Positions 3 to 42,614 of a stretch of DNA of 64,000 nt are shown here, one piece after another. Every line of letters starts with the position of its first letter. Position 1 is the stretch's first letter. The position numbers were made by a program, and so were the translations under genes. Origin of the DNA: a virus (lineage: Duplodnaviria; Caudoviricetes). Where the stretch lies: positions 32,001 to 96,000 of the IMG/VR virus record IMGVR_UViG_3300021387_003827; one strand, given 5' to 3'. The notes beneath the pieces are model-generated. The model was not told the origin of the DNA. It was given only the letters and a program-made list of their open reading frames with translations, and did not search any database.

Positions 3-416
3 GGAAAAGAGAAACTTAATGATAGATTAGAGGAGGGTCTTATCGAGTTTGGAGAAGATCATAAAATATATCAATTCTTCCCAGAGTGGTTTAGATTTAA
101 TCATAAGATTCTTGGGGACACTGGCTTAAAGAATAATAGGAATCTAAGGCCGGAATATAGAAATAAAGGGCGTCTAGACAGGTGGAAAAACTTTGATGAA
201 GATGCCATGAGAATTATATCTAAGGAGGTATTTAAGAGATTTGAAGTTGGAAGAATATATACAGGAAAATATATCAAAACAGAAATGCAGAAGATATATG
301 ACCTCCTTGAGATAGAAAAGATGGCAAAAATAAAAGATATCTTTGAATATTTCGATATATCAAAATTCAATCTTAGAGAATCAGAATATAGAATTGTAAC
401 AAGAAAAACATTATGA
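3..416 (+). CDS. 5'-truncated protein carrying the C-terminal domain shared with the helicase-like (37824) and T5orf172 (39839) proteins
   Basis: Frame 3 is open from the window start. ...FPEWFRFNHKILGDTGLK...FEVGRIYTGKYIKTEMQKIYD...AKIKDIFEYFDI aligns by eye with ...IPLIYKNYYLTLGPERIK...ISIGDRYSNQELKELLRSLYE...PKASDIEKWFEI. Confidence 0.6.
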   Translation, partial: GKEKLNDRLEEGLIEFGEDHKIYQFFPEWFRFNHKILGDTGLKNNRNLRPEYRNKGRLDRWKNFDEDAMRIISKEVFKRFEVGRIYTGKYIKTEMQKIYDLLEIEKMAKIKDIFEYFDISKFNLRESEYRIVTRKTL

Positions 417-3026: not shown

Positions 3027-3321
3027 GAAAATCGATAGACCGATTGACGTATCATTTTTCACTAATTCGGTAATGCCTATATTTGATGAAGCTCTATCCT
3101 TTTATCTTAGGGCTTCAGAATGTCCACGGATAAATCAAATGAAGAGATTTCCCAAAATGTATTATGGAATAGGTGTGTATCTTTTTGAAGAATGTATAGA
3201 GATCTCTGTATGGGATAATATGCATCTTATAGGAATAATTAAGGTATATCCCACCAAAGACCCTAAGCCTGATTCTCCAAAGTCTATATTCGAAGCCTTA
3301 GATATTATCTCAGATGGATAG
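3001..3321 (+). CDS. hypothetical protein
   Basis: 106 aa ORF overlapping the previous gene and followed by a terminator. Confidence 0.6.
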   Translation: MNILVEKIKKIDRPIDVSFFTNSVMPIFDEALSFYLRASECPRINQMKRFPKMYYGIGVYLFEECIEISVWDNMHLIGIIKVYPTKDPKPDSPKSIFEALDIISDG

Positions 3322-30596: not shown

Positions 30597-33444
30597 GAAA
30601 GGGGCTAATGATCTTGAGGAATATCAGCAGGCCCAAAATCAATTACTTGCTATACAGGCGGAACAGAGTAAGAATTTAGCTACCGCACGTGCTAATAATG
30701 AAGCAGATAGACAGCAAATTAATACTGTCGCTCAAGCAGGGATGGTGGCCGCTCAAGATGCCAATTTCAACCCTGCCACTAATAATATATTGGGTAGATA
30801 TGGACTCCAAAAACCAAGAACTGTATCTACCCAAGGAAGAAGTGTTCAAACCACTCCTCAAAATATAACAGTAAATAATTATTATAACAATACAACAAAC
30901 TATCCAATCCCAGGGCGAGAGTTAGCCTTTAGAAGCCCACAACAACAGAACAATCTAGCTTCGTTTAAATCGTGGATCTCTGGTGTATTCTCACGACAAA
31001 ATGAACAGGCTGCACTTAGAGAAAGAGAATACAACAAGAAAGAAAGGTCCCTTGCCAGAGATGCAAATCGGGTAATGAGGAAAATGGAAGAAGTTGGAAA
31101 AAGTGTTGGACGAGCTCTAGATCCAAGACGTGCAGCAGATAATCCAAAAAATCAAATAATGACGTTCCTCAAGCTCTTCGGTATTTATGAGATTGTTAAA
31201 AACTGGGATAAAATTCTAGATACTATAAATAAGATTGAAAATAGAATATCCTCCCTAATTGGATATGACGGAGAAAGGCTTGAGATCAGGAATGGAACCC
31301 TATATAAAGCCCTTGTCCATTATACCGGGGGAAAAGAAGGCGACACTCTTAGTAAATCTCTTAAAGGTTTACTTACCGATGAAAAAACTGGTATCTTCGG
31401 TCTAATAAAACAATACTTTAATGGACTTATAGAAGAGAGAAAAGCAGCCGTAAGTACTGTCGATAGACCTGAGATAGTGAGAAATAAAATGGGTCTACCT
31501 GATATAGGGGGAACTATAACCAACATCGCTAATTATCTTGGTGATATCTTAAATGCTCTGATCGGTGGTGCTTCGGGGGTTAAGAAAATAGCAGCCAAGA
31601 ATATTCAAAGATCAGCGGACGAAATATATGACACAGAAAGAGAGAAAGATAAATCCTCCTATGGCAGATATACTTCGGGAGCAAACTTCGCTGGAAAAGT
31701 GGATAGATCTTTAAAAGGGAATACAGATCTTGGTGATGCAAATGTTACTCTCCCGTATGGACTTGGAAGACAGACGTACCTAGATTCAAGAATTGACCTA
31801 GACTCTTCTGGAAACTTAAATTCTACACATGCCTCTTTAGCACAATCTGGAGCACTTGTAACTGCTCTTAATGATGCAAAGAAATCTGGAAATATTAAGA
31901 CCTCTGTGGTTCTCTCAGGATTTGATAGGCTTAAGACTTATGCCAAAACTCATAATGGAGCTGTGGTAGATGAAGAATTCTTAAAGAATTATTATGGGGG
32001 AACAGATATCGGGTCGGAGAGATGGTTTAAACTCGTTGCAGTTCCAAAGGAAGAAAAAGATTATTCTAGGTTAGGACAATACCCGACAGATATATCGTGG
32101 GGAGATGTGGCTGGAGATTGGTATAAAATGAAAATGCTTCCGGAGCTCTATGAGAAATTTAGATCCCTAGGTATAAATAACTATACACTAAAACTAGTCC
32201 CTGCCAAAGATAGAAACGATAAGGGACTAGATCTTGGAGATGGATATGGTGGTATTTATAAGTTCTATACCCTATCATCAAATGACATAGACCAGCTTGT
32301 ATCTAAGTTTACAGGAAATAATGATACAAGAGTTGACTTGACTAATAAAAATTTCTCTGAGTCTATGGTATCCGCTCTAAATAGAGAAGTTATTGCCGGG
32401 AGATATGACAGAGACGCTTTATCCCCTACCCATAATCTTGACATAGATCAAACATTCAGAGATTATGAGTATGTCCAAGGTGTTCATAATAATCTTCAGA
32501 CAGAATTTGATGAAAACATGGATAATGCTCAATTTAAGGAAGCTTGGAAAAATATTAAAACCGGCTACTATGAGAGAATGCCACATACAAATTCAGATAG
32601 AGAGTTCTTTAATGCATACTACGGACCGACGGTAGATTATCTCAAGAGAAATGGAATGTCTCAGGAAAATGCAGAAGAATTTGCCCTTCAGCTTATAAGT
32701 CACTGGGCAATGGAAACCGGCAATGGTAAGCATATGTCCGCCAACTTCAACATGGGAAATATTCATGCTGGGGAGAATTGGAAAGGAGAAAGTGTAGCTG
32801 GAACTGATACCGTAGCTGGAAAGGGAACTGCCCGATATAACACCTACTTCCGGAAATATAGAAGCCTTGATGAATATCTCGACGATAGTATGAAGCTCTT
32901 GTCCAACTCTAACTATAATTATATAAATAGAGGAGAGAATGGACTAAGCTTCAGAAATGGAATGGGACCTGAAGATTACTTTGAAGCTCTCCAGGTAAGA
33001 AGTAAGTACCATTGGGCTGGAAAATGGAACGGGGATAATTGGAGAAAAAATTACCTAGGAAAATTTAGAACAGTCCGAGATGAATTGGCAGAGGAAAGAG
33101 CAGCCAGGAAAGCCCAGTATGTTCCAAGCCCCTATATAGACCAGGAGGGTAAATCTGTTCCATTCATGTGGGGAGATAGATTTATGTATAACCCGGCGAC
33201 ATTCTCTTCTGTCGGTTCTAGTGTATTACTTCCAACTCCAGAAGATATTACCTCTGGAACTAAGACTATGAGAACAAGAGCCAGTGTTGAGGAGGCTATG
33301 AAAAATATGCCAGAAACTCTAAATGATATCAGGAGCGCATTAATAGCCCAAGGACAGGTAAGCACACAATACTACGAAGACGAAACACAATTACTATCCG
33401 AGATGCTTGCAAAATTGGGTAGAAGAAAAGGAGATAATGAATGA
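30583..33444 (+). CDS. tape-measure/hub-like tail protein with GH73 glucosaminidase (FlgJ-like) domain
   Basis: Coiled-coil N-terminus; HWAMETGNG...NFNMGNIHA...FRKYRSLDE...HWA glucosaminidase motifs (~32600-33100). Confidence 0.75.
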   Translation: MADNRKGANDLEEYQQAQNQLLAIQAEQSKNLATARANNEADRQQINTVAQAGMVAAQDANFNPATNNILGRYGLQKPRTVSTQGRSVQTTPQNITVNNYYNNTTNYPIPGRELAFRSPQQQNNLASFKSWISGVFSRQNEQAALREREYNKKERSLARDANRVMRKMEEVGKSVGRALDPRRAADNPKNQIMTFLKLFGIYEIVKNWDKILDTINKIENRISSLIGYDGERLEIRNGTLYKALVHYTGGKEGDTLSKSLKGLLTDEKTGIFGLIKQYFNGLIEERKAAVSTVDRPEIVRNKMGLPDIGGTITNIANYLGDILNALIGGASGVKKIAAKNIQRSADEIYDTEREKDKSSYGRYTSGANFAGKVDRSLKGNTDLGDANVTLPYGLGRQTYLDSRIDLDSSGNLNSTHASLAQSGALVTALNDAKKSGNIKTSVVLSGFDRLKTYAKTHNGAVVDEEFLKNYYGGTDIGSERWFKLVAVPKEEKDYSRLGQYPTDISWGDVAGDWYKMKMLPELYEKFRSLGINNYTLKLVPAKDRNDKGLDLGDGYGGIYKFYTLSSNDIDQLVSKFTGNNDTRVDLTNKNFSESMVSALNREVIAGRYDRDALSPTHNLDIDQTFRDYEYVQGVHNNLQTEFDENMDNAQFKEAWKNIKTGYYERMPHTNSDREFFNAYYGPTVDYLKRNGMSQENAEEFALQLISHWAMETGNGKHMSANFNMGNIHAGENWKGESVAGTDTVAGKGTARYNTYFRKYRSLDEYLDDSMKLLSNSNYNYINRGENGLSFRNGMGPEDYFEALQVRSKYHWAGKWNGDNWRKNYLGKFRTVRDELAEERAARKAQYVPSPYIDQEGKSVPFMWGDRFMYNPATFSSVGSSVLLPTPEDITSGTKTMRTRASVEEAMKNMPETLNDIRSALIAQGQVSTQYYEDETQLLSEMLAKLGRRKGDNE

Positions 33445-35969: not shown

Positions 35970-36544
35970 TTAATCCAGTATTTTATGTCGGGAGAATAAA
36001 AGAAGTTATAGACCCGAAAATATATATAGTCTCCGTAGAAGTTCCAGGTATCTTCGAGGAACTTAAAGCATTCCCAAGAAAGGGGCAACTAGATGAACCT
36101 AAACCTGGTGATCCCGTTGTACTTCTTGGCCTTGATCCTCTCTATAATTCCTACTATCTATGGGAAGGACTTAAAGAAACTGAATTTAGAGGAATACGTG
36201 TGGCTGGAAAAGAAATTACCTGGGACGAAGATAAGATAATGATTGGTGTATATAGTGGAGAAAACGAAGAGGATGGTAGTGAGGTTGATCCAGATAAAGC
36301 AATGATAACCCTAGATAAAGATGGGAACATAAAAATCAATGCTACGGCTGATGTTAATATAGAAGTCCAAGGAACAACCACACTGAAATCTACAAAAACT
36401 ATAATAAAGGGTCCGGGAAAACTTACAATCGAAAACGGTACAGTAATTCCAGATCCTTCCGGTGGACCATTTGTAGCAACTAAAGTAACACCGCCTCAAG
36501 GATCTCCGCTACCATCTGGAAATTCAATAATACTTGGAGGATAA
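35966..36544 (+). CDS. baseplate central spike (gp5/gpV OB-fold plus beta-helix)
   Basis: VGRIKEVID...VSVEVPG...EPKPGDPVVL OB-fold; ITLDKDGNIKINATADVNIEV beta repeats. Confidence 0.7.
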   Translation: MINPVFYVGRIKEVIDPKIYIVSVEVPGIFEELKAFPRKGQLDEPKPGDPVVLLGLDPLYNSYYLWEGLKETEFRGIRVAGKEITWDEDKIMIGVYSGENEEDGSEVDPDKAMITLDKDGNIKINATADVNIEVQGTTTLKSTKTIIKGPGKLTIENGTVIPDPSGGPFVATKVTPPQGSPLPSGNSIILGG

Positions 36545-36547
36545 GAT

Positions 36548-37270
36548 ATGGGACTAATAGATGGACTAAAGGAAGCCGTACTTAAAGAAATAGCGGACAA
36601 TCTCTTACCTTCGGTGGATATAAAAGATAAGTTTAGGGATTGGGATTCACTTTCCCCAGAACTTAAAGATGAATTTCTGGAGGACGAAGAGACAATAAAC
36701 TCAAACATAGAAGATCAAAAGGAACAGGTTATAAAAGGAATGGAACCGAAATGGAATAACCTGTCGTCCTCTTTAAATCTTCTTGTAAATTCTTCAACAC
36801 AATTTGTAACAAGGCTGGCAATGGTTCCTACGGCAATTATATCAACAACTCCCGTAGGTCCTGGTGTAGCGGCTGGAGCAATACCACAGGCAATAGCACA
36901 ATTAAAAAGTGATGGAGAGACTGTTGGAAAAGCTTATGATGATACTAAAAACTCTCTCTCTGAAATTCTTGGAGGTTATAGTGGGGATAGTACGATTATA
37001 ACCGACCTTAAGACCACCATAAGTACTCTCCTTGGAACTGCAGCAATAGCCTTAGCGGTTGTAGGAATTTCGAAGGATGGAGTTGAAGCACAGGAGCCAG
37101 AAGTACAAAGTCCTGTTGCTCTTCCTGAATACAAGGCCGGCGATTGTAAAAATTACCGGGAGATAGAACAGGAAGATCCGGTAGAATGTGAAAATTGTGA
37201 AAACTATAATGCTTTAAATCCTTCAGGGACGCGGGCATGTAATAATTGTACCCGCTATGAAAAAAGATAG
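36548..37270 (+). CDS. hypothetical protein with hydrophobic helices and Cys-rich C-terminus
   Basis: CKNY...CENCENY...CNNCTRY. Confidence 0.6.
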   Translation: MGLIDGLKEAVLKEIADNLLPSVDIKDKFRDWDSLSPELKDEFLEDEETINSNIEDQKEQVIKGMEPKWNNLSSSLNLLVNSSTQFVTRLAMVPTAIISTTPVGPGVAAGAIPQAIAQLKSDGETVGKAYDDTKNSLSEILGGYSGDSTIITDLKTTISTLLGTAAIALAVVGISKDGVEAQEPEVQSPVALPEYKAGDCKNYREIEQEDPVECENCENYNALNPSGTRACNNCTRYEKR

Positions 37271-37512
37271 TGGGATGGCTTATGGAGAGTGAAATTTCCA
37301 TAGGTCTCAAGTTGAAAACGCAGAGACTTGGGAGACGAAATCAAGATGAAACCCGAAGAAAAGCTGAGCGTTAGCGAAGTCTTTTCGAGTGGTTGAATAT
37401 TGATGAGTATCCTTAGGTAAAACAAAATCGAACCCCACCTCCATTTCATTCCGGTGGGCTCCGTTAAAGAAAAGAAATTGTGTGAAAGATATATAAATTA
37501 TTTTAAGAACAG

Positions 37513-37588
37513 CTGGCCCGAACCACAACTAACCCCGGAACGGAACGTTAGTGGAGTGGAGGGGTGTATGTTGGGGTGAAGGGGCCAG
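37513..37588. other. long GC-rich imperfect stem-loop within a ~550 bp non-coding region
   Basis: ctggccc..caac..acccc pairs with ggggt..gttg..gggccag around ggaacggaacgttagtggagtgga. Confidence 0.6.
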
Positions 37589-37656
37589 GTGTAATAAAAA
37601 ATAGTGACTTTACTTATATAAAGGTAATTTTTGTGGGTGTCAAAAAAAATTGTGAC

Positions 37657-37755
37657 TTTTTTGGTTATTTTTGGACATTTTCGCAGAAAATGGACAAAAA
37701 TGTTAGAAAAACACCCAATTTTGCAGATAAATTTAATAGTATTCCTTATATATAG
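37657..37755 (+). promoter_or_regulatory. conserved ~97 bp intergenic element, copy 2 (upstream of helicase-like gene)
   Basis: Same three blocks at the same offsets (0, +49, +72) as 3375-3473. Confidence 0.7.
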
Positions 37756-37758
37756 TAG

Positions 37759-37791
37759 AGGATGCTTCGCCTCCCAAGTGTGAAGCATCCT
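37759..37791 (+). promoter_or_regulatory. leader hairpin before the helicase-like gene
   Basis: aggatgcttcgc-ctcccaagt-gtgaagcatcct. Confidence 0.6.
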
Positions 37792-37823
37792 GAGATAAAA
37801 TATTATTAAATTTATTATAATGT

Positions 37824-39842
37824 ATGATTAAATCTACAATTAATGTACCTAGAGGAATTAGATACATTAGCGAATGGCAAAATTTTAATATACCAGAAAA
37901 AATTTGCATCTTAAACAAAACTCTTACTGGATGTGGTTTCACCGAGTGGGTAATAACTAGTAATGAAAATGTAGTTTTATGTTCTCCCCGTAAAATCCTC
38001 CTAGAAAACAAAGAAGAACAACATCCTGAAGTATTCTATTTTAAGAATGAATTAGATTATGACATAAGAGTTGACAAGGATCTCACAAAAGAGTACTATA
38101 AGAAATACGATCAAATTCCTACTCCTCCAGCCGATGCACAAGAAAGGTTGGAAAATATGAAACAAGGCCTGAAGAATTATTGTTATTCTAGGATGATGAA
38201 GGGCCTACCAATAAAGATCCTTGTTACCTACGACTCCTTCAGAATTGTAAAGGAAGTGCTTAAGACTTCGTTACCAGATGTATATTTTAACATCTATATC
38301 GACGAGTTCCAGAGTATTTTCACGGACTCACGCTTTAAATCATCTACGGAAATTGTCTTTTTATCTCATCTTCAAGGCCTGGATAAAGTATGTTTTGTAT
38401 CCGCCACACCAATGATAGATAAATACCTGGAGATGTTGGATGAATTTAAAGATCTCCCATACTTTGAACTTGACTGGGGAGCGGAGGAACAATCTAGAAT
38501 CATAAAGCCGAATCTTGAGATTAAGGCCATCAATGGATCAATAACTTCCTATGTAAAAGCTATTACGGATAAATATTTGTCAGGAAATTTTGACAAGGCA
38601 ACATATAGAGATGAATCCGGAAGGATAGTTGAAATAGAGTCCAAAGAAGCTGTTATCTATGTAAATTCGGTAAAGAATATTTGTGATATAATCCGAAAAT
38701 GTGGGTTAAATATAAATAATACTAACGTTCTCTGTGCTAGAACCCCTGAAAATGAAAAGGATATAAAGAAAGCATTTGGACTTAAGGGGAAAGGCGTATC
38801 AGGAATAGGAAAAGTGCCGCTGAGGGGAGAACCTAGAAAAATGTTTACCCTTTGTACTAGGACCGTCTATCTTGGAGCTGACTTTTATTCCCCATGTGCC
38901 CAGAGTTTCATATTCTCTGATGCTAATATAGACTGTCTTTCGGTTGATATTACTACAGACCTTCCTCAGATTTTGGGACGACAAAGATTAGAAAGTAATC
39001 CTTGGAAAAATTCTGCCAGGTTATATTATAAGACTTTGGCAACAGATAAAGCTATAACTCAAGATGACTTCAACAATCACATTCAAAAGAAAGTTAGTGA
39101 TACAAATGATCTTCTGTCCCTCTATAATAGATCTGTAGGTAGTGAAAAATCTACTTTAGCTGAAAGATGTTTACACCTGGTTAAGAGTATGAATTATAGG
39201 TTAGATTATTTGGCCGTCAATGAAAGGGCTGGAAATGTTTTGGTTCCTGTCTTTAATAACCTTGTCCTTGTTTCAGAGCTTAGAACTTTCGAAATACAAC
39301 AGATAGAATATAAGGATAGATTCTCGGTTTTCAGTACAATAGTGAATAATGATCTTCTTGTTTTTGAAGAGAAGATAGACTCATTTGTAACTAAGTTTAA
39401 TTCTCTCATCCTATTTACTGATAAGATGAAGTATGTTTGTGATACATGTGAAGTATTAGGCGAAGATGAGGCTGACAGGTTTATTAATTCTATTCCATTG
39501 ATATATAAGAATTATTATCTAACTTTAGGACCTGAACGAATAAAAACATTCTCGTATCGAAAGGCATATCTTGAGGCTGAATATAGCAAACAATTTCAGC
39601 AGCAGAATACTATAACTGATCTTGATACTTTGATCTATTCTAGAATATCAATTGGAGATAGATATAGCAACCAAGAGCTTAAAGAATTGCTTAGGTCTTT
39701 ATATGAAATTGCTTCTTATCCTGCCAATCCAAAAGCTAGCGATATAGAAAAATGGTTTGAGATAAGGCCTTGTCAAATTACTAATAAAACGACAGGAAAG
39801 AAGGACCATGGCTTTGAAATTATAAAAAAGAAAGACAAATGA
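37824..39842 (+). CDS. SF2 helicase-like protein (origin-binding-protein-like) with degenerate Walker A
   Basis: Motif I TGCGFT (no Lys), Ia SPRKILL, II DEFQ, III SATP, V YLGADF, VI QILGRQR. Confidence 0.75.
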   Translation: MIKSTINVPRGIRYISEWQNFNIPEKICILNKTLTGCGFTEWVITSNENVVLCSPRKILLENKEEQHPEVFYFKNELDYDIRVDKDLTKEYYKKYDQIPTPPADAQERLENMKQGLKNYCYSRMMKGLPIKILVTYDSFRIVKEVLKTSLPDVYFNIYIDEFQSIFTDSRFKSSTEIVFLSHLQGLDKVCFVSATPMIDKYLEMLDEFKDLPYFELDWGAEEQSRIIKPNLEIKAINGSITSYVKAITDKYLSGNFDKATYRDESGRIVEIESKEAVIYVNSVKNICDIIRKCGLNINNTNVLCARTPENEKDIKKAFGLKGKGVSGIGKVPLRGEPRKMFTLCTRTVYLGADFYSPCAQSFIFSDANIDCLSVDITTDLPQILGRQRLESNPWKNSARLYYKTLATDKAITQDDFNNHIQKKVSDTNDLLSLYNRSVGSEKSTLAERCLHLVKSMNYRLDYLAVNERAGNVLVPVFNNLVLVSELRTFEIQQIEYKDRFSVFSTIVNNDLLVFEEKIDSFVTKFNSLILFTDKMKYVCDTCEVLGEDEADRFINSIPLIYKNYYLTLGPERIKTFSYRKAYLEAEYSKQFQQQNTITDLDTLIYSRISIGDRYSNQELKELLRSLYEIASYPANPKASDIEKWFEIRPCQITNKTTGKKDHGFEIIKKKDK

Positions 39843-40840
39843 TCTACCTTATTGAAGTAACGTATTATATCAAGGAAACCGGAGGAATTTTAGATCTTCT
39901 TAAAATTGGATTTACAGATAATAGTTCTAGAAGAATGTTAGCTTATAAATACCATAACCCTGGATTTAAACAGCTAGGGAAAATAGAAGACGGAACATTA
40001 CAAGACGAGACCAATCTACACTATCATTTCAGGAAGTATAAGTATCCTGATTTTGGAAATGAATGGTTTTTATATAATGATGAAATTGTCGAATTCTTTA
40101 AGACTCATAAAACATCTGAGTCTTTATACTACGACATAGATATAGAGCCAGAGGTAGATAAGAGGTATAGAGGGGACATACTTCAGGAGGGGATTAGGTT
40201 ATTAAATCGTGCCTATAATATTTTGGGTGTCGAGTTTAATGTTAATATTGACGAAGATATTTATAAGAAAGCTCAGGATTATTTAAGCCGGGTTCCCAAA
40301 GATATCAAGGAATTAAAGAAATTCATTGAAGAAGATTATAATATTACTTTCTCGGAGGAAGATTTTATATTAGACGATAGATTACAAAATATTATCAATG
40401 AATTTAACTCATTTCCTCAGTTTACAGATAAGATGAAGTATTTGTGTGATCTTTCTGAAGATCCTGAATTTGATAAGATCCTAGACTCTGTTCCGATATT
40501 ATACAAGAGCTACTATATTATCTTAGGACCTGAACGAATAAAAACATACTCATATAGGAGAGCTTATCTTGAGGCTGAGTATAATGTAAAGATTGGCAAA
40601 GAATGTACAATAGATGAGCTTACTTGCCTAGTTTATTCTACGATAGAGGTGGGGAAAAGATATAGTAACCAGGAACTTAAAGAGGCATTAAGATCTCTAT
40701 ATGAATCCATCTCTTATCCCGCTAATCCTAAAGCAACTGATATAGAAAAGTGGTTTGAAGTAAGGACCTGTCGAATTATTAATAAAGAAACAGGAAAGCG
40801 GGATTATGGATTCAAGATATTAAGAAAGAAAGATTTATGA
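39839..40840 (+). CDS. T5orf172/GIY-YIG-superfamily endonuclease with C-terminal domain shared with the adjacent helicase
   Basis: IYLI...LKIGFT...RR...Y..HNP...E..LH..F...EWF. Confidence 0.75.
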   Translation: MIYLIEVTYYIKETGGILDLLKIGFTDNSSRRMLAYKYHNPGFKQLGKIEDGTLQDETNLHYHFRKYKYPDFGNEWFLYNDEIVEFFKTHKTSESLYYDIDIEPEVDKRYRGDILQEGIRLLNRAYNILGVEFNVNIDEDIYKKAQDYLSRVPKDIKELKKFIEEDYNITFSEEDFILDDRLQNIINEFNSFPQFTDKMKYLCDLSEDPEFDKILDSVPILYKSYYIILGPERIKTYSYRRAYLEAEYNVKIGKECTIDELTCLVYSTIEVGKRYSNQELKEALRSLYESISYPANPKATDIEKWFEVRTCRIINKETGKRDYGFKILRKKDL

Positions 40841-41166
40841 TTTACTTACTGTCGAGCGGAAGAACTACAACACGTCTGGAATATTATGTGCTCGATTTAT
40901 TTAAAATTTACTTAACTGTCTACCCCGATGATATTCCAGGCGCTCCATCGATAGGGTTTGATTATATTATACAGGACACAAGAAAATCAGATCTTGTGGA
41001 TGCTGTAAGAAATAAAGTTTCAGGATTAGTGTCAAAGATATCTTCAAGAATTAATGACAGAGCGGAGATAACTATAGACTCCATTGAAATCCTGGATGAA
41101 ACAAAAGCAAGAATTACCGTAACCATAAATAAATTGGTTACAGATTCTATAGACTACAATTTATGA
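40837..41166 (+). CDS. baseplate gp25-like protein
   Basis: IPGAPSIGFD motif, 109 aa, precedes the gp6-like gene. Confidence 0.65.
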   Translation: MIYLLSSGRTTTRLEYYVLDLFKIYLTVYPDDIPGAPSIGFDYIIQDTRKSDLVDAVRNKVSGLVSKISSRINDRAEITIDSIEILDETKARITVTINKLVTDSIDYNL

Positions 41167-42614
41167 AAACATTACAAGAATACAAGGATATTTATTCTGG
41201 TATTGCTTCCGAACTTGGAATAAGGGGAGACAGCGTTGAAGTATTGGTCGGATTACTGGCTAATGCTTCTTATATTTCTGAGGTTGAGAATGCTGTGTAT
41301 ATGAGGGAAGCATCATTAGGTAAGGCCACACTCTCTAATTCAAAGATTCAGAAATGTATGGATCAGATGTACTCGGTGTATCGTGGTGCTTGTCCAAGAA
41401 TTATACTTCATGTCAGATTTAAAACCTCTACAACCATTAAAAGATACGATGAAATAGTGTCTTCAAATAATTTCAAGGTATATTTTGATCTGGCCTGGAA
41501 TGGAAATGAGGAGCCGGAAAGTGGAGTACCTCTGTTGGAGAATTTTACCTTAGATATGATTCAACCTTCTCCTATGTCAGATTATTATATCTTAGGGTTT
41601 ATAGCTCCAAAGGTAGAAGAGATATCAGGATTTACATTATCTCCCACCCAGTTCTTTGTATCTACATCTGCCGACCAGGTTAATCTCTCGGCCGACATGT
41701 ATCTGATAGATGATAACTCTAAGGAAAGTATTGACGTAACAAGATCTTTCGGAGAGCATGTAAGAAGTGAGGGGAAGACTGTATTTGATCTTACGACTAC
41801 TTCTTTTGGATCAAGATTATATTTCACCCCTGGAGGAGATTCTAAGACATACACAGCACGATATTTTGTATATTCTCTTCTCTCTGATTATAATCCTGCG
41901 GAGCTTAGGAAAATTAAAATCAAAGATACGGACTCAATTCCTATTTCAGATTCAGATCCTTGGGCTTCTCGAAGAGGTGGTGTGGAAACAGAAAATGGTA
42001 TAGTTTTCATAGATTCCACACAAAGGGATTCTATGGACCAAATTCACTATCTCGCATCAAAGCAAAGATATACAAACCAAGTTATAAGGTCTAATTCGGA
42101 TATTTCAACTGTCCTAAAGAATGATGAAACAATAGGAAAATATATAAAACAGGTGACTTATCGTTTTGAATCGTCCCCTACACAAAGTGTTCTAAGTATA
42201 TATTATGTTCCATCTGAGGAGGGTGAAATTCCTGAAGAGAAAAAGGAAGAGTGGATAGCAGATGATTCTAAGAAGGCATATTTTGTTACTAATGATATAC
42301 GCTTGGAGACTGGAGATGAATACAAAGCTCAATTTAATATAAACCTTGTGATATATCGAGATCAATCGGCTGGTACAATTGGCGAAGATGTGTCAAAGAT
42401 ACTCAGACAATACGAAGATAAATTTGATATTGACTTTGATATCTTAGAAGAAGAAATTAAGGCTCATATATCAAAAATCTCTGCTGTCAAGAGTATTAAA
42501 GATTATTCCGTTCAATATTTTCATTCCGGGGCGCTATCTCCAAAACCAAATATCGGTGCTACAATTCCACCATATTTTGAAATTGAACTTAGATTAAATA
42601 TGATATTGTCATGA
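41163..42614 (+). CDS. baseplate wedge protein (gp6/gpJ-like)
   Basis: VLVGLLANASY...EASLGKATLSNS...YSVYRG N-terminal gp6 pattern. Confidence 0.75.
   Translation: MKTLQEYKDIYSGIASELGIRGDSVEVLVGLLANASYISEVENAVYMREASLGKATLSNSKIQKCMDQMYSVYRGACPRIILHVRFKTSTTIKRYDEIVSSNNFKVYFDLAWNGNEEPESGVPLLENFTLDMIQPSPMSDYYILGFIAPKVEEISGFTLSPTQFFVSTSADQVNLSADMYLIDDNSKESIDVTRSFGEHVRSEGKTVFDLTTTSFGSRLYFTPGGDSKTYTARYFVYSLLSDYNPAELRKIKIKDTDSIPISDSDPWASRRGGVETENGIVFIDSTQRDSMDQIHYLASKQRYTNQVIRSNSDISTVLKNDETIGKYIKQVTYRFESSPTQSVLSIYYVPSEEGEIPEEKKEEWIADDSKKAYFVTNDIRLETGDEYKAQFNINLVIYRDQSAGTIGEDVSKILRQYEDKFDIDFDILEEEIKAHISKISAVKSIKDYSVQYFHSGALSPKPNIGATIPPYFEIELRLNMILS

Follow-up and report, generated by a model that had tools for sequence, protein, structure and literature searches.

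The 64,000-nucleotide (nt) window considered here (bases 32001-96000 of the 182,986-bp IMG/VR virus record IMGVR_UViG_3300021387_003827) carries on its plus strand a gene for a helicase-like protein of 672 amino acids (aa; 37824-39842), followed at once by a gene for a 333-aa T5orf172 nuclease-type protein (39839-40840) and then by a gene for a 109-aa protein (40837-41166). Each stop/start junction in this series of open reading frames (ORFs) overlaps as ATGA. The two larger proteins end in related C-terminal tails, which we call Cdom. In comparisons of the window allele (W) with related loci, the nuclease gene shows presence/absence polymorphism and independent invasions, and tails have been exchanged between nuclease and helicase-like genes at up to 100% nucleotide identity.

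Two proteins with a common tail

In the helicase-like gene, a core of superfamily 2 (SF2) type (residues 1-510, 37824-39353), recognized by Foldseek and by invariant motifs, precedes Cdom copy 1 (residues 511-672, 39354-39842), which is delimited by BLASTP, a Cdom profile hidden Markov model (HMM) and an AlphaFold 2 (AF2) model. In the T5orf172 gene, an apparently mobile core (39839-40363), made up of a GIY-YIG-like nuclease domain (residues 1-97) and a helical linker (residues 108-167) and assigned by Pfam and invariant residues, precedes Cdom copy 2 (residues 176-333, 40364-40840). The sequence-only reading of this DNA had noted that the last ~140 aa of the two proteins are alike. Pairwise alignment by BLASTP bears this out and lengthens the match to ~160 aa, with 92 of 160 identities (58%, E 1e-62) between residues 512-671 of the helicase-like protein and residues 176-332 of the T5orf172 protein. 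Identity at the DNA level had also been noted, near 39524 and 40524, and here the 24-mer TTAGGACCTGAACGAATAAAAACA, coding for LGPERIKT, indeed occurs exactly twice, at 39525-39548 and at 40523-40546, with 0 occurrences expected in shuffles. Over 56 dereplicated tail copies, codon use at synonymous sites is that of the background and shows no family-wide constraint at the DNA level; the 24-nt identity is thus local, and is probably a local conversion patch.

A third and more divergent copy had been placed at the start of the window, ending at 416. The ORF in question (3-416, plus strand) is the 3' end of a gene for a 291-aa protein (genome 31541-32416), and although BLASTP finds the resemblance only weakly (E 2e-4 and 0.002), the Cdom HMM detects its winged-helix half, and that half only, at E 1.9e-11, so that the third copy stands. 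We considered the possibility that the 291-aa protein is a second T5orf172 protein, and dropped it, as the nuclease-core HMM fails to detect its N-terminus. A search of the whole genome found five Cdom genes, corresponding to three helicase-like paralogs and two short proteins, with two of the copies on paralogs outside the window. Beyond this genome, the Cdom profile matches 2,228 clusters at 50% identity. The domain lies in the C-terminal half in every listed match, mostly at the extreme end, and the proteins are mostly either ~330-350 aa long, with a T5orf172 N-terminus, or 670-700 aa long and helicase-like.

Both models of the tail have the same parts. The Cdom of the nuclease is modeled as a helical bundle (180-251) followed by an H-b-H-H-b-b unit (258-330), and the AF2 model of the helicase Cdom likewise has a helical bundle and an H-b-H-H-b-b unit, at 600-669. 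In both models, DSSP assigns the winged-helix topology, with a basic wing that reads NKETGKRDYGFKILRKK. The winged helix that follows the bundle in the shared domain is a common DNA-binding fold, and on these models the tail is a probable DNA-binding domain.

At the N-terminus of the 333-aa protein (residues 11-85), Pfam reports T5orf172 (PF10544) at 22.5 bits against a cut-off of 20, and MUG113 (PF13455) at 23.4 bits against a cut-off of 22.3, while T5orf172 homologues of the protein score higher, e.g. 32.5 bits. The residues of a GIY-YIG catalytic core (Y3, K22-I23-G24, R32, Y36 and E75) are invariant in 49 full-length homologues, which retain the full-length architecture at 27-40% identity. 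The model of the whole protein, with a predicted local distance difference test score (pLDDT) of 86.9, consists of an alpha/beta domain (1-96; topology b-b-a-b-a, pLDDT ~90), the helical linker, and then Cdom. One further contig on record carries a nuclease protein 98% identical to this one; within our comparison set, no other core exceeds ~52% identity to the window's nuclease core.

The helicase-like protein and its tail gave nothing usable in searches of Pfam, PHROGs, PADLOC and PDB sequences, and the only leads from a search of the Atlas, a Pox_D5 cluster and a BT4734-like_N cluster, were below threshold. With its AF2 model (pLDDT 81.6), Foldseek finds WRN, BLM, Brr2 and the origin-binding protein of herpes simplex virus 1 (HSV-1) at E 1e-8 to 1e-10 and probability 1.0. 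The model has the two RecA-like domains of an SF2 protein, and motifs II (DEFQ), III (SATP) and VI (QILGRQR) are invariant. The Walker A pattern G-K-[ST], however, is absent, with TGCGFT, which has no lysine, found instead in all 50 of 50 aligned sequences. The P-loop of the family, NK..TGCGFTE (residues 31-41), is thus invariant and non-canonical, having a phenylalanine at the position of the Walker A lysine; K32, seven residues earlier, is also invariant. The HSV origin-binding protein UL9 (9hgi_B, Foldseek E 1e-8) resembles the window protein in having an SF2 core followed by a C-terminal DNA-binding domain, but it is one among hundreds of SF2 matches and has no sequence relationship to the window protein, which moreover lacks the Walker A lysine. 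The family to which the window protein belongs is a large one, with more than 4,652 homologue clusters, all unnamed and none with a Pfam family, on contigs of up to ~400 kb. The three helicase-like paralogs of the window's genome (672, 695 and 682 aa) share 37-51% mutual identity by BLASTP, and the other two have no nuclease gene beside them.

An optional gene and exchanged tails

We fetched 80 IMG/VR loci by a profile of the helicase-like protein alone, disregarding the nuclease. A Cdom-bearing gene abuts the helicase stop in 26 of these loci, almost always with a T5orf172 N-terminus and in one case split in two, and the nuclease gene is missing from the other 54. Tail and nuclease core share one reading frame in 29 of 32 Cdom-bearing downstream genes. 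A frameshift is the probable cause of the split gene (L059:5510-6579), whose core and tail lie in separate ORFs of 208 and 148 aa, respectively; in one locus found via a nuclease homologue (L017:3706-5844) two T5orf172-plus-tail genes stand in tandem behind the helicase gene. Three nuclease homologues were looked up independently, and all three follow a gene of 681-703 aa that is helicase-like by blastp, in unrelated neighborhoods. In one nuclease-free allele (L066:5542-6873), the slot directly 3' of the helicase-like gene is taken by a gene for a 443-aa protein in which Pfam finds two HNH_3 motifs (E 3e-14), so that two endonuclease families use one insertion spot.

Contig L011, which comes from a different sample, shares 96% nucleotide identity with the window over 19.7 kb and has the same gene order but no 998-nt insert, the stop of its helicase gene directly overlapping the start of the gene for the 109-aa protein. 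The T5orf172 part of the cassette is thus optional, and the same polymorphism, as expected for a freestanding homing endonuclease gene (HEG), was found in four further pairs of loci. The T5orf172 and 109-aa proteins both open with MIYL, encoded by ATGATYTACYT (39839-39852 and 40837-40850), which amounts to an 11-nt microhomology at either end of the 998-nt insert.

According to the sequence-only reading, the pair of genes interrupts a baseplate operon. A helicase-like gene lies just upstream of the 109-aa gene homologue in L098 (2727-4820) and in L099 (4448-6462, where it is split into 291 and 401 aa), so that the helicase module is old at this position and, of the two genes, the T5orf172 gene alone is a recent indel. 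In the distant relative L100, the flanking genes are contiguous and there is no helicase gene. The 109-aa gene homologues lie upstream of the 483-aa gene in all of L098-L100, and the flank proteins of these three loci are only ~40% identical to those of the window. A related-locus search with the 483-aa flank protein gave zero relatives. As for the flanking genes themselves, no profile library gives them names, and "baseplate" and "gp25-like" (the 109-aa gene) are only labels of the earlier reading.

Five orthologous pairs of loci, in each of which one member has the nuclease gene and the other does not, fall into two classes of junction. In W/L011 and L033/L036, the nuclease-free helicase tail is the same as the helicase tail of the nuclease-bearing sibling, and the insert reads as a nuclease core followed by a foreign tail. 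In L045/L070, L055/L066 and L060/L039, on the other hand, it is the tail of the nuclease that is 97-100% identical in nucleotide sequence to the helicase tail of the nuclease-free sibling, while the nuclease-bearing sibling's own helicase tail is only 50-93% identical to that nuclease-free tail. The insert in this second class (L045, L055 and L060) reads as a foreign tail, a stop and a nuclease core, placed ahead of the resident tail. Nucleotide identity jumps across the nuclease gene in four of the five pairs (e.g. 91.8% upstream and 99.7% downstream), and such jumps have been reported for T5orf172 HEGs (PMC10448857).

Nuclease and host gene have incongruent histories, and identical elements are found in different backgrounds, as would be expected for horizontal spread. 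In L055 and L060, the helicase cores are 89% identical and the nuclease cores 39%, which points to separate invasions. Over the helicase tail and nuclease core taken together, L043 and L050 are 100% identical; between their nuclease tails the identity drops to 67-78%, and the flanks downstream are unrelated. Between L043 and L045 (boundaries near 3080 and 6560), ~400 nt of the upstream block can be aligned together with the helicase and nuclease genes, and both flanks are unrelated; this suggests that the whole module of block, helicase and nuclease has been duplicated or moved as a cassette.

The Cdom tree (61 rows, 21 of them from nuclease genes) requires 17 changes between helicase and nuclease labels, compared with 17.6 +/- 1.7 for shuffled labels, so there is no nuclease-specific lineage of tails. 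On this tree, the nuclease tail of the window is placed together with the local helicase tails, those of the window and L011, and apart from the tails of other nucleases, with a value of 100 in the Shimodaira-Hasegawa-like approximate likelihood ratio test (SH-aLRT). The earlier proposal that a T5orf172 nuclease had captured the DNA-binding domain of an origin-binding protein was therefore correct as to local capture or exchange, although it missed both the optional, mobile nature of the nuclease gene and the recurrent re-assortment of tails.

Between the window and L011, ~100 nt differences are scattered along the helicase gene, and 11 of 672 residues differ in the protein. Ten of these 11 fall in residues 604-664, and eight fall in the wing of the winged helix (codons 647-664, 39762-39815, plus strand). 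At six of the eight differing wing positions, the L011 residue is the residue found in the window's nuclease tail. The window thus repeats the pattern of the second class on a small scale, its nuclease having the nuclease-free version and its own helicase being the changed one. This hot spot, like the identity jumps in four of the five pairs, is the kind of divergence next to an insertion point that accompanies co-conversion. It may be a short conversion tract, a switch of specificity, or both. The suggestion that both proteins target one site becomes doubtful for the window pair, because the tails match at just 58% of residues and the wing is exactly where they diverge.

Proposed homing-type mobility and its rivals

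From these comparisons we consider it likely that the 333-aa gene encodes a freestanding, homing-type mobile T5orf172 (GIY-YIG-like) nuclease with a modular, swappable tail. Such a nuclease would specialize in the 3' end of helicase-like genes in large phages of Bacteroidota type, and from N- to C-terminus would consist of a nuclease domain, a helical linker and a tail homologous to that of the neighboring helicase-like protein. The tail-coding segments would act as diverged tandem direct repeats flanking the nuclease core. Crossovers within these repeats, or with the single tail of a nuclease-free allele, would insert or delete the core and swap the tails, with the frequent result that the nuclease holds the tail of the nuclease-free allele (in the window, its wing) while its own helicase holds a diverged one. 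We infer that the tail binds DNA, that the enzyme would cut nuclease-free alleles, whether within the helicase gene, close to it, or at a site recognized by the helicase tail as well, and that repair from the nuclease-bearing genome would copy the nuclease gene in.

Several points weigh against this reading. The Pfam scores of the nuclease domain barely exceed their thresholds, and fold searches with the whole model listed no GIY-YIG chain, the helical linker filling the lists (Foldseek with the whole 333-aa model gave noise only). Every comparison sequence is a metagenome assembly. The pairs, as sequences, cannot separate insertion from deletion, and recombination from repeat to repeat, without any nuclease activity, could by itself explain loss of the gene. 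We found no cleavage or recognition site, and no family-wide conserved DNA motif in the tail-coding region.

GIY-YIG enzymes of the I-TevI and Seg type in T4-like phages share the domain order of the window protein, with an N-terminal catalytic domain, a linker and a C-terminal DNA-binding domain, and their genes are freestanding and spread by break repair with co-conversion of the flanks. Their binding modules (zinc finger, NUMOD or helix-turn-helix) are not known to be copies of the product of a neighboring gene. Phage T5orf172 HEGs resemble the window gene in being freestanding and patchy, in lying beside important genes and at boundaries of nucleotide identity, and in having modular, recombining binding regions (PMC10448857). 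Their modules, however, are mostly zinc fingers of the CapR, DUF723 and DUF4397 types, and for none has a tail shared and exchanged with a neighboring SF2 helicase-like gene been described (PMC10448857).

The origin-directed nuclease Odn (gp88) of cholera phage ICP1 is a T5orf172 nuclease with the origin-binding RepA_N domain of the initiator of a satellite (PLE, an element resembling phage-inducible chromosomal islands), and cuts the origin of that satellite (PMC8263062). With this precedent in mind, we considered the possibility that the window nuclease is primarily a weapon. Its helicase-type tail would find the helicase's site in rival genomes, e.g. an origin in the hairpin block upstream, the cut would damage co-infecting siblings that are free of the nuclease, and mobility would be secondary. 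Such a role would fit the nucleases of three pairs, which bear the exact tail of the nuclease-free allele, and the window nuclease, which matches it at six of eight wing positions. In three pairs, everything upstream (hairpin block and helicase) has diverged, as would fit a far-upstream cut repaired from the donor. The positions of crossovers alone, however, yield the same patterns, and in L033/L036 the helicase tails are identical in both alleles while the nuclease tail is foreign. Nor does any evidence identify the helicase-like protein as an initiator, or the block as an origin. The genome's three blocks share essentially no 7-mers except GCTTCGC, and no iterons, while cumulative GC skew follows the gene strand and is uninformative as an origin test. 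On balance, we regard an Odn-like weapon as unlikely.

The likeness to Odn lies in a T5orf172 domain fused to the binding domain of a replication-type protein, with a shared target, and in an HEG-like chimeric origin (PMC8263062); the window nuclease, too, appears to share a predicted DNA-binding domain with another protein. Odn, however, has its RepA_N-type domain at the N-terminus and T5orf172 at the C-terminus (PMC8263062), whereas the window protein is reversed and its tail has no Pfam family. Because the domain order is reversed and the tail is unnamed, the window protein does not have the architecture of Odn. The donors differ as well: for Odn the satellite PLE, in a single event (PMC8263062), and for the window the adjacent helicase-like gene of the phage or its siblings, in recurrent exchange.

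It could also be that the "tail" of the nuclease is a by-product only, i.e. the helicase gene's own 3' end, displaced and now read through in frame, without function in the nuclease. Fungal mitochondrial mobile ORFs (mORFs) in Allomyces atp6 and in Glomus atp6, atp9, cox2 and nad3 provide the analogy (PMC3630166). In these, an endonuclease ORF comes with a foreign version of the 3' part of its target gene, and the imported stretch becomes the end of the host gene; the native 3' part, pushed downstream, is near-identical to its counterpart in relatives that lack the element (PMC3630166). The resulting layout of gene core, imported 3' part, endonuclease ORF and native 3' part is that of the Allomyces and Glomus hybrids (PMC3630166), and we find it in full in L045, L055, L060 and the L043/L050 block, and in the window for the wing patch of ~55 nt only. 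Re-supply of tails from functional helicase genes could, moreover, keep functionless tails looking intact. In mORFs, however, the displaced part is in many cases a leftover of a respiratory gene and goes unexpressed (of the native 3' ends in Glomus, those of atp9 and nad3 were found in mRNA and those of atp6 and cox2 were not; PMC3630166), whereas in the window a domain of nucleic-acid-binding type is read in frame as the tail of the nuclease. Both junction types occur in the phage system, and its hosts are phages.

We argue from the sequences that the tail is functional within the nuclease and not a mere read-through remnant, since the nuclease core and linker have no other DNA-binding module, since core and tail are kept in one frame in 29 of 32 genes, and since conservation among nuclease proteins is almost as high in the winged-helix half (44% mean pairwise identity) as in the nuclease domain (53%). 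The window's nuclease tail has diverged by 42% from that of its neighbor, yet it is intact and conserves the key positions of the family, and the 49 homologues keep the full-length architecture even at 27-40% identity. A functionless by-product therefore seems to us very unlikely. Least probable of all, and to our minds hardly credible, is a cooperating two-gene machine in which helicase and nuclease act on one site via the same tail (nicking an origin, or as a nuclease-helicase processing pair), for although the ATGA overlap suggests coupled translation and the pairing recurs in many neighborhoods, the nuclease is dispensable (absent from 54 of 80 helicase loci, from the 96%-identical sibling and from beside the genome's other two helicase paralogs), a different endonuclease family can fill the same slot, and the nuclease and helicase lineages are incongruent.

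Returning to a homing-type mobile nuclease, the system in the window appears to combine features of Odn, of the T5orf172 HEGs and of the mORFs, and to differ from them in the type and order of its domains, in having an adjacent helicase-like gene as donor, and in using the displaced part as the tail of the nuclease. A tentative extension, which is possible but which we would sooner doubt than believe, is that this nuclease family owns no fixed DNA-binding domain. Each invasion would take the winged-helix tail of the resident helicase and supply a replacement; the nuclease would thereby be aimed at the DNA (perhaps an origin of phage replication) recognized by the helicase of the uninvaded allele, and the genome that carries the nuclease would change its specificity. 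If this is true, such a nuclease would amount to a homing or exclusion system that retargets itself and acts on the initiator modules that jumbo phages carry in several copies. On the homing-type reading as such, the loci offer a natural and repeatedly sampled case of mobile nucleases gaining or changing target specificity by trading modules with a neighboring gene, joining two separate literatures, that on phage T5orf172 HEGs and Odn and that on fungal mitochondrial mORFs. The borrowed tail also gives a handle on the DNA recognized by a large, unnamed helicase-like family that is present in multiple copies in jumbo phages, and winged-helix tails, being swappable and naturally varied (as in the 8 wing residues that differ here), could be of use in programmable nucleases.

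Upstream blocks and genome setting

The helicase-like gene is preceded by a non-coding block (37271-37823, plus strand) with no ORF, and a scan of 36500-41500 gave no Rfam match. Within the block, positions 37271-37600 are GC-richer and full of hairpins, 37588-37659 are AT-rich and contain direct repeats, and 37759-37791 make up a short GC hairpin ~30 nt before the helicase ATG. The sense strand of the block folds at -101 kcal/mol (z -4.56 against shuffles) and the antisense strand at -76.6 kcal/mol (z -2.6). Non-coding blocks of 400-650 nt and of similar style precede every helicase-like paralog that we examined, including those at genome 133350-133964 and 182566-182986 (minus strand) and those in L009, L012, L015 and L017. 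In order, they contain long hairpins whose loops are C/T-rich and have G/A-rich partners downstream, an AT-rich stretch and, 30-60 nt ahead of the ATG, a short GC hairpin, and their local GC content reaches 0.58 compared with 0.36 for the genome. A Mantel-type test of the upstream block against the tail, given the helicase core, returned a partial r of 0.01 (p 0.39), which is uninformative because the distance measure for non-coding sequence is poor.

The virus record (GC 36%), that of a large phage from gut or rumen, ends in 88-bp direct terminal repeats. The start of the 291-aa Cdom gene coincides with the genome's main strand switch and with the minimum of cumulative GC skew (~31 kb; gene region 31420-32416). 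Outside the window, a protein resembling TonB-dependent receptors is encoded at genome 246-2270, and another at L012:6489-8468, for which the Pfam families Plug and TonB_dep_Rec are recorded; these genes are consistent with Bacteroidota hosts.

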